A stretch of DNA of 22,508 nt, from NCBI GenBank assembly GCA_016839785.1, contig JAEOTQ010000012.1:1-22508 (forward strand), given 5' to 3'. Position numbers and translations under genes: made by a program. The number at the start of each line of letters is the position of its first letter. Within the stretch, counting starts at the first letter, position 1. The notes under the pieces are model-generated. The model saw only the letters and a program-made list of their open reading frames with translations, had not been told where the DNA came from and searched no databases. The DNA is from Candidatus Hodarchaeota archaeon (lineage in GTDB: Archaea; Asgardarchaeota; Heimdallarchaeia; Hodarchaeales; Hodarchaeaceae). Shown here piece after piece: positions 15,166-22,362 of the stretch.

Positions 15166-15564
15166 GTGATAGGGAAACCGTTGGGAACTCACGAAATTAT
15201 CCAAGCCTTTGAAGCAGTTTTTGGCGAAATGATTGACCTCCCAGCATGCATTTCTATCTGTGACAATGATGGACTACTCATCTACTCTGTAGGAGAATGT
15301 GCAGACCAGTGGGTTCTAGAATCGTTTTTATCCTATCTAATCATGTCATACGAAGCTACACATGAAAAATTAGCACTAACAGATGAGACTCTAGACAGTC
15401 TTGTAATAACTACTGGGAATAAAGTTTATTATGTTGATAATATAGGGGGCAAAGACGGTTTGTTTATGATTATCCAAACCACTCCAGTTCTCATGAATAA
15501 AGTACTACCCTTTCTTAGAAATATTGTATTAAATGTTGAAAAATCATTATCTAAAGGAGAATAG
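15166..15564 (+). CDS. Roadblock/LC7 (MglB/LAMTOR-like) domain protein
   Basis: 132 aa with helix-strand-strand-helix-strand x3-helix pattern and ISICDNDGLLIYS signature. Confidence 0.65.
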   Translation: MIGKPLGTHEIIQAFEAVFGEMIDLPACISICDNDGLLIYSVGECADQWVLESFLSYLIMSYEATHEKLALTDETLDSLVITTGNKVYYVDNIGGKDGLFMIIQTTPVLMNKVLPFLRNIVLNVEKSLSKGE

Positions 15565-15803
15565 GGTTATACCTTCCTAACAACATTGAAAGGTAATCTT
15601 AAAGCTTCTTTTAACATGAATGAGTGTATTTCTTCTTGATTATGCGTCTTACCAATAGGATTTTACGGAAATATATTGTAAGGTCCTGTTTTATATGAAC
15701 TTCTGACCATCAAGTAACTTTTTAATTTCGCAGTTTTTCCCCTCACACTGTATAACGTATACTCATTGGCTATAATTCAGTATTTAAAGGAAGATTGGAA
15801 TTC

Positions 15804-16889
15804 ATGGGAAAAATAAGAGTAGCAATCGCGGGTTTAGGCAATTGTGCTTCAGCATTAATTCAAGGTGTCCACTATTATCGCAATGCAAAGCCAGATACGC
15901 GGGTTCCCGGACTAATGCATGTTCAATTTGGAGATTATCATGTCAGAGATTTAGAATTTGTTGCTGCATTTGAAGTAAACAAAGATAAAATTGGAAAGAA
16001 AATTAGTGATGCGATTTGGGTCGCCCCTAATTGTACGCCAAAATTCTCTGATGTCCCTGAAATTGATGTAATCGTTCAACCTGGACCTATCAATGATGGT
16101 GTCGCCCCTCATATGATGGATTCATTTCATTGCTATGAAGAATCAAAAATGAGTCCTGTTGATGTTGCTCAAGTCTTAAAAGACGTAAAAGCAGACGTTT
16201 TAGTTAATTTCCTTCCCGTAGGAAGTGAAGAAGCCACAAAAATCTATGCTCAAGCATGCTTGGATTCAGGTGTTTCCCTTGCTAATGGAATTCCGTCATT
16301 TATCGTTTCCGATCCAACAAAAGAATGGCCAAACAAATTCGAAGCGAAGGGTATTCCTATTGCTGGAGATGACATAAAATCTCAGGTAGGAGCAACAATT
16401 CTTCATCGCGTTCTAGCCAAGCTAATGTTGGATCGGGGAATTGAAATTGAAAAAATGTATCAACTAAATGTGGGTGGTAATACGGATTTTGAGAATATGA
16501 AATATGAATCTCGGTTAACGACAAAACGGATAAGTAAAACCGAAGCTGTTACAAGTTTAATGCCCCATGATATACCAGTCCGTATTGGTCCTTCTGATTA
16601 TGTTCCTTTTTTAGGAGATAGGAAGATCTGTTATTTAATGCTTGAAGGACGTAAATTTGGTGATCAACCAGTCTCAATAGAAGCGAAATTAAGTGTTATT
16701 GATAGTCCCAATTCTGCAGGCGTTATGATTGATGTCATTCGTGCTTTAAAGATTGCCAGAGATCGTAAAATCGGTGGGCCATTGATTTCAATGTCCTCTT
16801 ATTCATTTAAACACCCACCAGTCCAAATACCTGATTTTGAGGCTCATGAACGAGTTGAGTCATATATTCGCGGCGAAGTAGAAAGGTAA
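15804..16889 (+). CDS. ino1: myo-inositol-1-phosphate (inositol-3-phosphate) synthase
   Basis: IRVAIAGLGNCASALIQG, VNFLPVGSEEA, GDDIKSQVGATILHR, YQLNVGGNTDF, DSPNSAGV, FKHPP. ATG at 15804 preferred to TTG at 15795. Confidence 0.96.
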   Translation: MGKIRVAIAGLGNCASALIQGVHYYRNAKPDTRVPGLMHVQFGDYHVRDLEFVAAFEVNKDKIGKKISDAIWVAPNCTPKFSDVPEIDVIVQPGPINDGVAPHMMDSFHCYEESKMSPVDVAQVLKDVKADVLVNFLPVGSEEATKIYAQACLDSGVSLANGIPSFIVSDPTKEWPNKFEAKGIPIAGDDIKSQVGATILHRVLAKLMLDRGIEIEKMYQLNVGGNTDFENMKYESRLTTKRISKTEAVTSLMPHDIPVRIGPSDYVPFLGDRKICYLMLEGRKFGDQPVSIEAKLSVIDSPNSAGVMIDVIRALKIARDRKIGGPLISMSSYSFKHPPVQIPDFEAHERVESYIRGEVER

Positions 16890-16906
16890 AAGCTTCAAAG
16901 CACACG

Positions 16907-17842
16907 GTGCTTGATTTGAAATTAATGCCTCTGTTCCATGATATTTACGATTTAATCAGATTACCTTTATGTATACTGGGTTCTCTTGCAGGTTTTACAG
17001 CAGGATTGATTGTATTATTAGTCCAGAATCCTGGGTATAATCTTATAACTCTACTTGAACAATACTGGCAGTTAGGAGCATTAGGTCTTTCCATCCCTTT
17101 TCTTATCGTGGGTGCTTCAATGGCAATTAATGATTATCATGATTATGAAGCTGATCGAATAAATGGGCGGATGGACCGACCACTGGTTCGAAACCCAAAT
17201 CTTAAACCCAAATCTGTTCTTTATGGTTCGATTTTTATGATTGGGTTGGGAGTCTTAATTTCCGTTTTCTTATTTGACGGAAATTTCTTAGTACCCATCG
17301 GTGTAGTGATATTCAGCTTTCTATCGGTATCATATAATTTGTGGACTAAAGAAAAAGGTATCTTAGGAAACATGACAGTAGCTGGAAGTAATACTGCTCC
17401 TTATTTATTAACGCTTGTAGCTCTTGAAGCAAAAGATCAAAATACTATACTTGTTGTCGTTGTAATGGCTATTATCACGTTTTGTGGTGTATTAGGACGA
17501 GAATTGGTGAAAGGAATTATGGACATTGAAGGTGATAGAATAACTGACTCACGAACTTTTGCTGTCCAGTATGGGCCTAAAAGAGCTGTCCAATTGGCTT
17601 CATTCTTTTTCCTTATCTTGATAATTCTTATACCAATTCCAATGTTCATCAAGTTTCAAAATAATTATCTCTATCTCATTTTAATGGTGATTACCGTTCT
17701 AATGTTTCTATATACGGTGGTTATTCTTTATAATGATCCTTCTATCAAATCAGGAAAAAAAGCTCGTTCATATACTCGAACAGCACTTTGGATAGGATCC
17801 GCAGCATTTTTAGTTGGAGCTATTGCTCTCTCTGGAGTTTAA
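16907..17842 (+). CDS. UbiA-family prenyltransferase, probable digeranylgeranylglyceryl-phosphate (DGGGP) synthase
   Basis: Polytopic membrane protein with NDYHDYEADRIN...RPL, YN...K...GN and RELVKGIMDIEGD acidic motifs. Confidence 0.82.
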   Translation: MLDLKLMPLFHDIYDLIRLPLCILGSLAGFTAGLIVLLVQNPGYNLITLLEQYWQLGALGLSIPFLIVGASMAINDYHDYEADRINGRMDRPLVRNPNLKPKSVLYGSIFMIGLGVLISVFLFDGNFLVPIGVVIFSFLSVSYNLWTKEKGILGNMTVAGSNTAPYLLTLVALEAKDQNTILVVVVMAIITFCGVLGRELVKGIMDIEGDRITDSRTFAVQYGPKRAVQLASFFFLILIILIPIPMFIKFQNNYLYLILMVITVLMFLYTVVILYNDPSIKSGKKARSYTRTALWIGSAAFLVGAIALSGV

Positions 17843-17865
17843 TATACAAGCATTAAGGGTTAAAA

Positions 17866-19236
17866 TTGTTCGGAGAACCAAATAAATTCACGTGGCAAAT
17901 CGCTCAGAAGTCTAAATTGCGTGAAGGATCAGATGGTATTGACAAAATAATTAGGCAGCTCTATAGAAACCAAGATCATAAACTTACTAATAAGGAATTT
18001 GCGAAGTTAGTCGGAATTCCTGTACCAGTTATCTCTGCGGTTCGTGGGGAATTGATAAAAGCAGAATTTTTAAAAACGAAAAATATCCTAAGTTCGAAAG
18101 CTATTTCCTGGATTGAAAAAGAATTAGGTCTACGATTCGATTATAGTTTTTTTCAGGGATTTTCACCATCTTCTCCTTCAATATCAACCGAACATTTGTC
18201 ATTTTTTAAACCCATTATTGACGCATTAGATGATCGTCCCCCTCCTGAGTACAAGTATGATCAAACAAGAAGCACTACTGAGACTGTTTTGAAACGAGCT
18301 TTAATAATGGCTCGAAATGGAGATGTAGAAGGAAGAAAAATAGTTTTACTTGGCGATGATGATGGATTATCAATGGCACTTGCACATCTTGACTGTGCCC
18401 GTGAAATTGTTGTAATAGATATTGATTCACGAATTTTAAAGGTAATAGAAGATTTTTCCAAGCGAAATAACTATTCAACCTTAATACGTACCCATTTATG
18501 GGATATAAGAACCGCTTTTCCGAAGGAATGGCTAAATTACTTTGATACTTTTGAAATGGACCCACCTTACACTGTATCAGGGTTTAAATTATTTGTATCA
18601 CGCGCTCTTTCATTAATAAATCCTAGTTCAACTTCACATGGCTATATTTCATTTGGAAATAAATCACCGTTTGAAAAATGGGAGTGTCAGGAACATTTAA
18701 ACACCAATGGGCTTGTAATTGAAGAATTTATTCCTAATTTCAATAGCTATATTGGAGCGACAATTCTAGGGAGTTCATCCAATCTCTATATCGTTGGCTC
18801 AATCCCACAAAAAGTGTTTAGAACAGAATTACCAGACCAAACGCAAGCAATCTATACTTTTGACGAAAACAAAGTTAAGGATTTACCAACTGTAGGATAC
18901 CAAATTATTGCTGAACTCTATGGTGTAAGCAACGAAATCCTGACTAATGTCACATTACTAAAGGAAATCGCTTCACTTGGATTAGAGCATAGTCAACTTC
19001 ATGCAGAAGAATTCTTTTTAAAAGAATATTCTCCCTACGGACTTTCAGTCATCTTTATCTTGGTAGAAAGTCACTGTCACATCCATACGTGGCCTGAGTA
19101 TAACTACTTATCTTTAGATTTATTCGTGTGTGAAGCTAAAGAAAAAGCCGAAACATTCTTTCACTACTTATTAAAACGAATTAACCCAGTAGATTATCAC
19201 AAGTTTCAGTTTTATCGGGGACGTCCTCAACTATAA
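17866..19236 (+). CDS. bpsA: Fusion: branched-chain polyamine synthase (BpsA/DUF43-type aminopropyltransferase) plus C-terminal pyruvoyl-dependent S-adenosylmethionine decarboxylase (SpeD-type) domain
   Basis: Residues 1 to about 340: RPPPEYKYDQ, TETVLKR, GDVEGRKIVLLGDDD, VIDIDSRIL, DPPYT. Residues about 343-456: GYQIIAELYG, YSPYGLS, LVESHCHIHTWPEYNYLSLDLFVC with self-cleavage site E401/S402. One uninterrupted frame, TTG start. Confidence 0.88.
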   Translation: MFGEPNKFTWQIAQKSKLREGSDGIDKIIRQLYRNQDHKLTNKEFAKLVGIPVPVISAVRGELIKAEFLKTKNILSSKAISWIEKELGLRFDYSFFQGFSPSSPSISTEHLSFFKPIIDALDDRPPPEYKYDQTRSTTETVLKRALIMARNGDVEGRKIVLLGDDDGLSMALAHLDCAREIVVIDIDSRILKVIEDFSKRNNYSTLIRTHLWDIRTAFPKEWLNYFDTFEMDPPYTVSGFKLFVSRALSLINPSSTSHGYISFGNKSPFEKWECQEHLNTNGLVIEEFIPNFNSYIGATILGSSSNLYIVGSIPQKVFRTELPDQTQAIYTFDENKVKDLPTVGYQIIAELYGVSNEILTNVTLLKEIASLGLEHSQLHAEEFFLKEYSPYGLSVIFILVESHCHIHTWPEYNYLSLDLFVCEAKEKAETFFHYLLKRINPVDYHKFQFYRGRPQL

Positions 19237-19261
19237 GATGATCATTACGGTGTAAAAGCAA

Positions 19262-19915
19262 ATGTCAAGTCGTTTAGACGTCGAAAACAATGAATTCAAC
19301 TTTCTAAACGAACTAGGAAGGAAAGCAGTACATTTAACTGTGTTAATTATTCCGTTTAGTTACCACGTACTTAAAATTAAGTTGTGGTTCATTCAATTGT
19401 CATTATTTGGTGTTTTATGCTTTTTCATCCCAATGGAGTTGTATCGTCTAAAGGTCAATCCAAGAACCTGGCTTAACTATATTACTCGGGAAGCCGAAAA
19501 GGATGAAGTAGCAAATTATATTCCTTCAACACTAATTTGGTTAGCAGTATTGCTAGGAGTTTACTGGTTCTACTCAATGGAAGTAGCAGAATTGGCATTA
19601 ATTGCAACCACACTTGGAGATTCTGCTGCAGCGTTAATTGGAAGGGGATTAGGCCAGCACAAATTGCCTTTTACCAAGGAGAAAACAATAGAAGGTTATT
19701 TGGGAGGAGTGGTATTCACTTATATCTTCGGATTTGCTTTTCTCTCGATTATTGGAATGCCCTCATTATTACTACCCCTCCTACCAACTGTTGCAATAGC
19801 ATTTTTCGATTTTTTTGAAGATTTACCATATTGGGCTGCTGATAATCTATTTCATCCATTAATCACGCTTATTCTTGCATATATTTTGGTTCTTATGGGT
19901 ATTATAAGCACTTGA
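19262..19915 (+). CDS. CTP-dependent isoprenoid-alcohol kinase family (dolichol/phytol kinase, Sec59/Vte5/Dgk1-like) membrane protein
   Basis: ELGRKAVH, LGDSAAALIGRGLG, KTIEG and DNL motifs; hydrophobic. Confidence 0.82.
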   Translation: MSSRLDVENNEFNFLNELGRKAVHLTVLIIPFSYHVLKIKLWFIQLSLFGVLCFFIPMELYRLKVNPRTWLNYITREAEKDEVANYIPSTLIWLAVLLGVYWFYSMEVAELALIATTLGDSAAALIGRGLGQHKLPFTKEKTIEGYLGGVVFTYIFGFAFLSIIGMPSLLLPLLPTVAIAFFDFFEDLPYWAADNLFHPLITLILAYILVLMGIIST

Positions 19916-20636: not shown

Positions 20637-20753
20637 TCTAAACCACACGGTAAATCAATGAGTCATTATTCTAGATAAGTTTTTTATATTTATTTCCTTA
20701 AAATAGGAGAAGAAAAATATTATGCTCTAAGAATTATCACAGGTATAGTGAAA

Positions 20754-21158
20754 ATGGGAACAAATTCAGATTTTAGATTAAAATTTGTGCTTCAAGGCTG
20801 GGCTGCTAATAGTACACGCCGATCAGAGGGAGTAGCCTTCGTGGCTCTAGATCCAGCTTCCGCTCGTGCAATAATTGAAAATTTCCGCGATAAAACTCCA
20901 AGAATCCTAATATCTCCCTTGATAGATTGGTCTTGGTCGGATATCGCTAATAATGTTGCAGGAGTTGTTACAGATCATGGAACGAGAGTATCAAGAGGCT
21001 CAGAAGTCTCAAGTATTGTACAAGTTGCTGCTGTGCTGGGAACTAGAGATGCTACTACTAAAATTAAGGATGGAGATTATATTCAGATTATTTGTGAGGG
21101 AAATGAGGCACTAGCGAAAGTTTTTGAACCAATAATAGGAAAATTAGATGATAGATAA
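20754..21158 (+). CDS. Stand-alone PEP-utilising enzyme mobile (swivel/phosphohistidine) domain lacking the catalytic His
   Basis: AGVVTDHGTRVSRGSEVSSIVQVAAVLGTRDATTKIKDGD aligns with the family pattern AGIVTDxGGxTSHAAIVARExGIPAVVGTxxATxxLKDGD; TSH reads VSR. Confidence 0.78.
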   Translation: MGTNSDFRLKFVLQGWAANSTRRSEGVAFVALDPASARAIIENFRDKTPRILISPLIDWSWSDIANNVAGVVTDHGTRVSRGSEVSSIVQVAAVLGTRDATTKIKDGDYIQIICEGNEALAKVFEPIIGKLDDR

Positions 21159-21950: not shown

Positions 21951-22008
21951 CTTATGTCTTATCAAGATTTCAAGAAAATGAATGTGATTGCTTATGTCTT
22001 ATCAAGAT
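21951..22008 (+). repeat. Exact 18-bp direct repeat duplicating the profilin translation start
   Basis: CTTATGTCTTATCAAGAT at 21951-21968 and 21991-22008 (40-bp period). Confidence 0.9.
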
Positions 22009-22362
22009 GATATGAATGCCCTCATACAAAATGGATACATCTCCATTGTTTCAATTCTCGATCCTAATGGGGCCCCTTATTGGACAAACCAACCCGAGTG
22101 GCAGGTTGATGGTCCAGCGCTGTTAACTTCTTGGCAAAACAAAGAACCTGGGGTTAATGTTGCTGGAGTTCGTTACTCTAGTATGGTTAATGATTGGGAA
22201 GTTGGTAACTTTGTTGCCCGAAATGTTGGTGGAGCAGGAATTATTTGCTTAGTCCGAGCCCCCAATAATTATTACTTTTTAACATGGACTCCTGGGGATG
22301 TTCAGATTCCTTCTATCAATATCCATGGCGAAGTTGCAAAGATGGCTATTAAATTCAAGTAA
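21994..22362 (+). CDS. Profilin (Asgard, eukaryote-like)
   Basis: 122 aa from ATG 21994. MSYQDDMNALI resembles the eukaryotic MSWQxY start; SILDPNGAPYW and GVNVAGVRY match profilin strands; C-terminal helix EVAKMAIKFK. Confidence 0.82.
   Translation: MSYQDDMNALIQNGYISIVSILDPNGAPYWTNQPEWQVDGPALLTSWQNKEPGVNVAGVRYSSMVNDWEVGNFVARNVGGAGIICLVRAPNNYYFLTWTPGDVQIPSINIHGEVAKMAIKFK

Follow-up and report, generated by a model that had tools for sequence, protein, structure and literature searches.

Can a single archaeal gene both make and spend decarboxylated S-adenosylmethionine (dcSAM), and if it does, which amine receives the aminopropyl group? This question is raised by an open reading frame (ORF) at positions 17866 to 19236 (+ strand) of a 22,508-nucleotide stretch of DNA, referred to below as the window, from contig JAEOTQ010000012.1 of a Candidatus Hodarchaeota archaeon (assembly GCA_016839785.1). 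The ORF joins an aminopropyltransferase domain of the BpsA family to a SpeD-type S-adenosylmethionine decarboxylase (AdoMetDC) domain. A first-pass annotation of the same DNA had taken it for a self-cleaving branched-polyamine module. The present study reveals that the fusion is a real gene of a widespread and recurrent architecture. Its conserved residues suggest that both domains are very probably active together, as an aminopropyltransferase fed with dcSAM by its own decarboxylase. Whether the fusion would also be the primary polyamine synthase of its lineage, with agmatine or putrescine as the predicted acceptor, appears to us an even call.

The frame 17866..19236 is single and intact, with 456 codons plus a stop, a TTG start and 0 internal stops (all window coordinates given here are on the + strand). 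It encodes a proenzyme of ~52.5 kDa, and its N-terminus, MFGEP, agrees with the MFG[DN]P of its homologues. Residues 1-121 (17866..18228) form a helical, winged-helix-like domain common to BpsA; in a profile of 18 homologues, positions 5-294 align with chain positions 21-311 of the Thermococcus kodakarensis BpsA structure 5xnc. The BpsA-family Rossmann domain follows at residues 122-334 (18229..18867). Pfam BpsA_C (PF01861) matches it with 159.5 bits (E 1.1e-46; gathering score 27) over residues 122-299 (18229-18762), and invariant residues extend beyond that match to Y330/T331. This domain carries the motifs GDDD (G163-D166, 18352..18363), the putative site of dcSAM aminopropyl binding by correspondence with BpsA, DID (residues 185-187, 18418-18426) and DPPYT (D232-T236, 18559..18573). 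It ends in IYTFDE (I329-E334, 18850..18867), a motif conserved in the subfamily of DPPY-type proteins.

A short linker (residues 335-341, 18868..18888), variable in length among homologues, leads into the class-1b AdoMetDC domain (residues 342-456, 18889..19233). Pfam AdoMet_dc (PF02675) covers residues 347-452 (18904-19221) with 82.2 bits (cut-off 25; E 4.1e-23; profile positions 2-107 of 107), and the NCBIfam equivalog model for adenosylmethionine decarboxylase, TIGR03330, gives 84.4 bits against a cut-off of 75.65. The domain contains ESH (residues 401-403, 19066-19074), HTWPE (residues 407-411, 19084-19098) and DLFVC (residues 418-422, 19117-19131), the last two bounding a catalytic stretch at 19084..19131. 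By sequence, the nearest PDB entries are 5xnc (E 7.6e-31) and the Thermotoga maritima AdoMetDC 1tlu (E 3.4e-15). An AlphaFold2 model built from 66 fused sequences has a mean predicted local distance difference test score (pLDDT) of 89.3 and a predicted template-modelling score of 0.72. Residues 1-121 are helical in it (pLDDT 90-96), and its sole weak stretch is the linker, with a mean of 57 over residues 331-340. A Foldseek search with this model returned 5xnc_B first (E 1.6e-22, 356 columns), and 1tlu_A with a template-modelling score of 0.87 by target and a root-mean-square deviation of 1.5 A over 114 columns. Pfam, NCBIfam, PDB and fold matches thus bear out the description of one ORF holding a BpsA-family aminopropyltransferase and an intact SpeD-type domain, and the positions that the first-pass annotation gave for the motifs and for cleavage, with an alpha chain of 55 aa, are confirmed.

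Across the 66 fused homologues, with identity down to 25%, the invariant residues are D132, Q133, G163, D164, D165, D232, P234, Y235, Y295, Y330 and T331 in the transferase and S402, H403, H407, W409, P410, E411 and C422 in the SpeD domain. D166 is conserved in at least 90% of these sequences, and the whole GDDD is invariant in a separate set of 29. Judged by this conservation, both active sites are under selection. S402, H407 and C422 align with S63, H68 and C83 of the T. maritima enzyme, which are processing and catalytic residues there (Li et al. 2023, PMC10407285, in excerpt). These conserved residues suggest that the decarboxylase domain would cut itself by serinolysis at E401/S402 (GAAAGT, 19066..19071), turning S402 into the pyruvoyl group. 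The predicted products are ~45.7 kDa (residues 1-401, the beta chain 342-401 being covalently joined to the transferase) and ~6.8 kDa (residues 402-456, the alpha chain of 55 aa). In class-1b AdoMetDCs the alpha chain remains bound after cleavage, as in the T. maritima structure. The first-pass annotation had expected cleavage to release this chain; its site and length stand, and release does not, as the chain would probably stay bound here too.

Could such a frame be an artefact of assembly or binning, or a decaying gene? The source assembly is fragmented (4.04 Mb, 248 contigs, 84.5% complete). We compared it with 41 related genomes, 21 of which belong to the same genus-level group (congeners). 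The fusion gene is present in 19 of the 21 congeners, 17 times at full length in one frame and twice cut by contig ends, and was not found in the other 2. One of the 17 full-length copies (in genome G005) has a single TGA inside the gene, and in genome G023, of family f2, three in-frame stops lie between the two halves; both would fit an artefact or decay. Against this stand the full-length congener copies themselves, the invariant catalytic residues and the presence of both Pfam domains in 108 of the 120 best database relatives (NCBI labels the fused ones plainly as 'adenosylmethionine decarboxylase'). Furthermore, contigs from two metagenome runs, which belong to one study and may derive from the source sample, span the domain junction gap-free (18638-19130 and 18592-18983). 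In run X4, which belongs to another study, both domains are covered except 18783-18892, and hence the junction is left unbridged. A 3-base omission at 18134-18136 came from unrelated contigs that match over 35 bases and are loose at either end, and in an RNA run only 0.07 of the words were present. The fusion is a real gene and no assembly artefact; the contrary is scarcely credible.

The architecture is not confined to this lineage. When 1.84 billion cluster representatives were scanned with HMMER, 3742 matches were obtained at E <= 0.001. Among the best 150 of these, both domains were found in 37 by hidden Markov models built from an alignment of our own, with the transferase preceding the decarboxylase in 36 of the 37. 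A scan of species genomes was seeded on the SpeD motif alone, and its 80 loci kept are a sample and no census. It contained a fused ORF in at least 5 loci (three Promethearchaeota, Paenibacillus motobuensis and Xenorhabdus hominickii) and separate neighbouring speD and bpsA-like genes in at least 8; the paired-gene taxa among the matches listed are two Archaeoglobaceae, Methanocellales, Bathyarchaeia, an uncultured archaeon, Chloroflexota, Bipolaricaulota and Fimbriimonadales. On a tree of the transferase domain (90 rows, IQ-TREE in quick mode, rooted on the Thermococcus and Aquifex proteins), the fused or unfused state changes at least 6 times. The Asgard fusions (the Heimdall family f1, a 500-aa Heimdall type and Loki) form one 17-row clade with 95% support in the Shimodaira-Hasegawa-like approximate likelihood-ratio test (SH-aLRT), which includes the split form of family f2.

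Thus, the architecture is widespread, recurrent and already in public databases. The first-pass annotation had considered that it might prove both widespread and characterised. The first part holds; as to the second, no paper describing the fusion was found in the literature searched on BpsA/AdoMetDC fusion, branched-chain polyamine plus Asgard, DUF43/PF01861 and Asgard polyamine/hypusine. In a term search of the 2026 BpsA review PMC12979288, the words fusion, fused, Asgard, Heimdall and Lokiarchaeo were absent. The statement that BpsA normally stands alone cannot be kept, as a paired or fused speD is common in the family, both among cluster representatives and at the species loci.

Several fused or split relatives have features of their own. 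Two fused proteins come from cultured bacteria, X. hominickii (L048 2899-4422, 507 aa) and P. motobuensis (L043 2863-4197, 444 aa), and both carry a CxxC...CxxC zinc-ribbon-like insert between the transferase and SpeD domains. The Xenorhabdus gene has a TetR regulator upstream and an IS1 fragment and a GNAT acetyltransferase downstream. In a 13-row clade of ~440-aa fused proteins (P0153, P0155, P0156, P0161, P0167 and others), Asn-Ser, Thr-Ser or Gln-Ser replaces Glu-Ser, and the His after the predicted pyruvoyl serine is often Asn. In G023 (family f2, L036 45-1601, - strand), bpsA-like and speD genes lie in the order and frame of the fusion with three stops within five codons between them, a state which may reflect fission, a pre-fusion stage or an error.

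How closely are the two activities tied to each other? The source genome has one AdoMet_dc match and one BpsA_C match, and both are within the fusion gene. Among the 41 related genomes, an AdoMet_dc domain occurs in 29, and all 29 have a BpsA-like gene. The two are fused or adjacent in 28 of them; in G022 they lie on separate short contigs. Specifically, they are fused in family f1, split in frame in G023 and, in 7 f4 genomes, adjacent with speD as the upstream gene. This constant company supports the view, already taken in the first-pass annotation, of a module that makes its donor and uses it. Family f3 provides a natural control for the donor site, as all 6 of its genomes have BpsA-like genes and AdoMet_dc was found in none of the 6. 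Both f3 genes that were examined (L034 7839-10363, in G038; L035 6507-9122, in G024) have GDSD instead of GDDD and adjoin a lysA-like decarboxylase dependent on pyridoxal phosphate (PLP). As pure conjecture, they might use a different donor, e.g., S-adenosylmethionine itself, with decarboxylation afterwards.

The SpeD-type domain could also have been neofunctionalised to a pyruvoyl arginine or ornithine decarboxylase, in which case the fusion would couple diamine production to the transferase. Such a change of function is widespread among SpeD homologues, and one proline is retained throughout bona fide AdoMetDCs but is not fully conserved in the arginine decarboxylases derived from them (Li et al. 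2023, PMC10407285, in excerpt). That a PdaD-type pyruvoyl arginine decarboxylase was not found in the 84.5%-complete source genome also speaks for this alternative. However, P390 and P410, the two candidates for this proline, are each invariant in the 66 fused sequences, so the proline feature is present either way. Taken with the TIGR03330 score above its cut-off and the equivalents of S63, H68 and C83, it makes an arginine or ornithine decarboxylase very unlikely, and the caveat raised to that effect in the first pass probably does not apply. Besides, the genome has a separate gene for a PLP decarboxylase next to an agmatinase-like one, GDDD and AdoMet_dc vary together from family to family, and the transferase would be left without any source of dcSAM in its genome.

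On the preferred reading of the decarboxylase half, then, the SpeD domain would decarboxylate S-adenosylmethionine to dcSAM, and the BpsA-family domain would bind dcSAM at GDDD and pass its aminopropyl group to an amine. Is this second domain a true branched-polyamine synthase? It would then aminopropylate spermidine at N4, with the fused AdoMetDC as donor source and spermidine obtained by uptake or by iteration. BpsA is indeed the best relative in sequence and in structure, and the N-terminal domain is common to both. The working parts of T. kodakarensis BpsA (Tk-BpsA) are GDDD (G157-D160), which positions the aminopropyl group of dcSAM, Asp225, Glu259, Tyr290, Tyr316 and a flexible C-terminal acidic cluster (E339, D342, D343, E344, E345), which acts as aminopropyl carrier (PMC12979288, in excerpt). 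By sequence alignment, from which all residue equivalences here are drawn, the fusion protein keeps GDDD (invariant or nearly so in the 66 homologues), Asp225 as D232 in its DPPYT motif and Tyr290 as the invariant Y295 (18748..18750). The equivalent of Tyr316 is uncertain, possibly Y308 in the MAFFT alignment.

Other features set the fusion transferase apart from the characterised enzyme. Its 159.5-bit Pfam match spans just profile positions 11-187 of 243, compared with 400 bits for Thermococcus and 386 for Aquifex (positions 1-243) and 329 for Aquificaceae (2-243). The DPPE of thermophile BpsA is replaced by DPPY, and no Glu259 equivalent was found in the fusion protein, which has K266 or S267 there depending on the alignment. 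The acidic cluster is not recognisable in it either, as the domain ends in IYTFDEN and then the linker, whereas the Thermococcus and Aquifex proteins end in ELYNDEE- or FYLDEE-type sequences. IYTFDE was at first guessed to be the acidic lid of BpsA, a guess set aside because MAFFT aligns the motif elsewhere; the placement is ambiguous, and D333 and E334 could still serve. On the transferase tree, all DPPY-type proteins, including the fusion protein, form an 80-row clade (99% SH-aLRT) from which thermophile BpsA is excluded.

The host also fits poorly with a synthase acting on spermidine. A spermidine source is not recognisable, as neither SpeE nor the carboxynorspermidine decarboxylase NspC was found, NspC being missing from all 41 related genomes as well. 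The charged-minus-polar bias of the proteome, 0.28, is not hyperthermophile-like, and the window sequence is present in marine-sediment runs. The IVYWREL fraction of the proteome, 0.411, corresponds to ~50 C by the Zeldovich formula, an estimate that is biased in AT-rich genomes. Therefore, the fusion transferase is a member of the BpsA Pfam family by its sequence but fails several features of the characterised enzyme, and the branched-polyamine reading of the first-pass annotation appears unlikely.

If spermidine is probably not the acceptor, what else does the genome offer? No match to Spermine_synth (PF01564, the SpeE family) was found in the fusion protein or in its 84.5%-complete genome. 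Contig C148 carries a deoxyhypusine synthase (329 bits, above cut-off) and, beside it, a PLP decarboxylase of the alanine-racemase fold (lysA-like, below the model's cut-off) and an agmatinase-like gene; a second agmatinase, on contig C137, passes its cut-off. A strong SpeE match occurs in just one of the 29 AdoMet_dc genomes, the congener G010 (194 and 167 bits); all other matches are at or below 36.5 bits, 20 of the 21 congeners are without a strong one, and two Loki genomes with the fusion have just 29-bit matches. In G010, the SpeE-type genes lie in tandem at C1:4527515-4528974, and an extra 124-aa SpeD homologue is present at C1:84734-85054 in addition to the fusion; these canonical polyamine genes look like an acquisition.

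Since the fusion holds the sole AdoMetDC and aminopropyltransferase detected in its genome and in nearly all congeners, its most probable acceptor would be agmatine or putrescine, which the decarboxylase and agmatinase-like cluster could supply. As no other spermidine route is recognisable and the precursor genes lie beside deoxyhypusine synthase, we read the fusion as a candidate primary triamine synthase, which would replace SpeE and make spermidine or aminopropylagmatine, possibly with further aminopropyl additions. The choice of acceptor is the least certain step of this scheme. Hypusination of (a/e)IF5A requires spermidine, and deoxyhypusine synthase was once taken by us as decisive proof of a need for endogenous spermidine; this argument was dropped, as the gene is also found in families without AdoMet_dc.

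Several observations weigh against a primary triamine synthase. The sole characterised members of the family, the BpsA enzymes of T. kodakarensis and Thermus thermophilus, use spermidine as acceptor at its secondary amine and are poor on short diamines (PMC12979288, in excerpt). A strong SpeE occurs in the same genomes as BpsA-family genes in Paenibacillus, Xenorhabdus and Thermococcus, so the family is not a general substitute for SpeE. Deoxyhypusine synthase is present in 39 of the 41 relatives, including families f3 and f5, which have no AdoMet_dc, so its presence alone does not call for a dcSAM route. A genome that is 84.5% complete could hide a SpeE gene, though 20 of 21 congeners have no strong match either. 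Lastly, the fusion gene does not lie with the polyamine genes of C148 but in a conserved operon with lipid-type genes.

This operon comprises four co-oriented genes at 15795-19915 with gaps of 17-25 nt. A myo-inositol-1-phosphate synthase (15795..16889), a conserved neighbour, is followed by a UbiA-family prenyltransferase resembling digeranylgeranylglyceryl phosphate synthase (16907..17842; 6m31 at E 3.4e-19), which ends 23 nt before the fusion gene. Downstream, a 217-aa membrane protein (19262..19915) starts 25 nt after it; this protein has a weak CTP_transf_1 match (E 3.4e-07; 1.2e-06 in its homologue at locus L029), and no PDB relative was found for it. All 5 of the f1 loci examined, with identity as low as 52%, keep the gene order, and the inositol-1-phosphate synthase also precedes the split bpsA/speD pair of family f2. 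The conserved lipid-type operon keeps a different acceptor in play, namely an amine other than a polyamine, e.g., the head group of a membrane lipid or a derivative of inositol, the gene then functioning with its own operon. The DPPY motif, of the amino-methyltransferase type, and weak matches of the transferase domain to N6-adenine and HemK-type methyltransferases and METTL5 would agree with such a role. However, the shared gene order may reflect common descent of close relatives and not a joint function, and in families f4 and f3, in Loki and in bacteria, BpsA-like genes have other neighbours. Furthermore, the genome would be left without a triamine route and its polyamine precursor genes without use, and we know of no aminopropylated lipid of the kind required. 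A non-polyamine acceptor therefore seems rather improbable.

Upstream of the operon, a 132-aa ORF at 15166-15564 corresponds to one of 142 aa in the same place in loci L029 and L030, and no Pfam, NCBIfam or PDB match was found for the 132-aa ORF. A 124-aa ORF at 21988-22362 has no Pfam match but resembles the profilin 6yrr (E 2.7e-36) and, more weakly, 5zza and 7pbh, the latter also titled profilin. We take 6yrr to be a Heimdallarchaeota profilin; this eukaryote-signature gene fits an Asgard host. The nearest database relatives, whose source names are Hodarchaeales and Heimdallarchaeota, likewise put the window in the Heimdall group of Asgard archaea. The window start truncates a PEP-utilizers_C protein at 47-946, and 20 kb away, at 20748-21158, lies a distinct protein of 136 aa that holds the PEP-utilising mobile domain alone.

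Going beyond the single gene, it is possible, though on balance doubtful, that Hodarchaeales and Loki-group Asgards make a triamine for growth and hypusination through a BpsA-family enzyme that carries its AdoMetDC as a fused domain. If so, spermidine synthase would have undergone non-orthologous replacement in the closest archaeal relatives of eukaryotes, and the BpsA family, regarded as 'thermophile-only', would include a large branch of mesophilic enzymes with primary amines as acceptors. These archaeal genes would then not be the ancestors of the SpeE-type spermidine synthase and class-2 AdoMetDC of eukaryotes. A fusion acting as the Asgard spermidine synthase would mean that a universal step is solved by a new kind of enzyme, and would bear on the origin of the eukaryotic polyamine pathway. 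The literature found by searches for Asgard with polyamine or hypusine does not address Asgard spermidine synthesis. The AdoMetDC scenario of Li et al. (2023, PMC10407285), as given in excerpt, misfits a simple model of Asgard plus alpha-proteobacterium. Besides, a gene that on its own both generates and consumes dcSAM would offer a compact means of producing aminopropylated amines.

Among known systems, the nearest to the transferase half is BpsA (EC 2.5.1.128) of T. kodakarensis and T. thermophilus (5xnc, 5xnf, 5xnh, 6j26-6j28). The two share the two-domain fold and the equivalents of GDDD, Asp225 and Tyr290, and BpsA is the best match of the fusion protein in both sequence and structure. 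In contrast to BpsA, the fusion protein, at 26% identity, belongs to a separate clade, matches the Pfam profile in part, has DPPY for DPPE and is ~16 residues shorter from Y295 to the end of the domain. It has neither a Glu259 equivalent nor a recognisable acidic carrier cluster, and it is fused to an AdoMetDC. The host of the fusion gene has no detected SpeE for spermidine supply.

The decarboxylase half is a full-length domain like the class-1b SpeD of T. maritima (TM0655, 1tlu) and the Bacillus subtilis type, with the same ES site, S63/H68/C83 residues, HTWPE motif and fold. It differs from the T. maritima enzyme in that its beta chain is attached to a 341-residue N-terminal extension, and its alpha chain measures 55 aa, compared with 68 aa in T. 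maritima, where S63 lies in a 130-aa chain. As for fusions, Green et al. reportedly described AdoMetDC-SpeE-type proteins in some beta-proteobacteria in 2011. In the AdoMetDC-aminopropyltransferase fusions of Ca. Pelagibacter (Li et al. 2024, PMC11107197, in excerpt), too, one polypeptide makes and uses dcSAM, but there the AdoMetDC is N-terminal and its partner is of the SpeE (Spermine_synth) family, whereas the present fusion has the reverse order and a BpsA-family partner. The SpeD-SpeDC double fusions likewise join a class-1b SpeD to a polyamine enzyme, with self-cleavage within a longer chain; their partner is not a transferase but another homologue of SpeD, which acts as an ornithine decarboxylase, and that work reports none of its fusions from archaea (Li et al. 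2023, PMC10407285). The unfused speD and bpsA-like pairs of Heimdall family f4, Archaeoglobaceae, Methanocellales, Bathyarchaeia, Chloroflexota and Bipolaricaulota place the same two activities side by side. In these pairs, however, the activities reside in two genes, usually with speD upstream, i.e., in the opposite order to the fusion, and their transferases lie on other branches of the tree.

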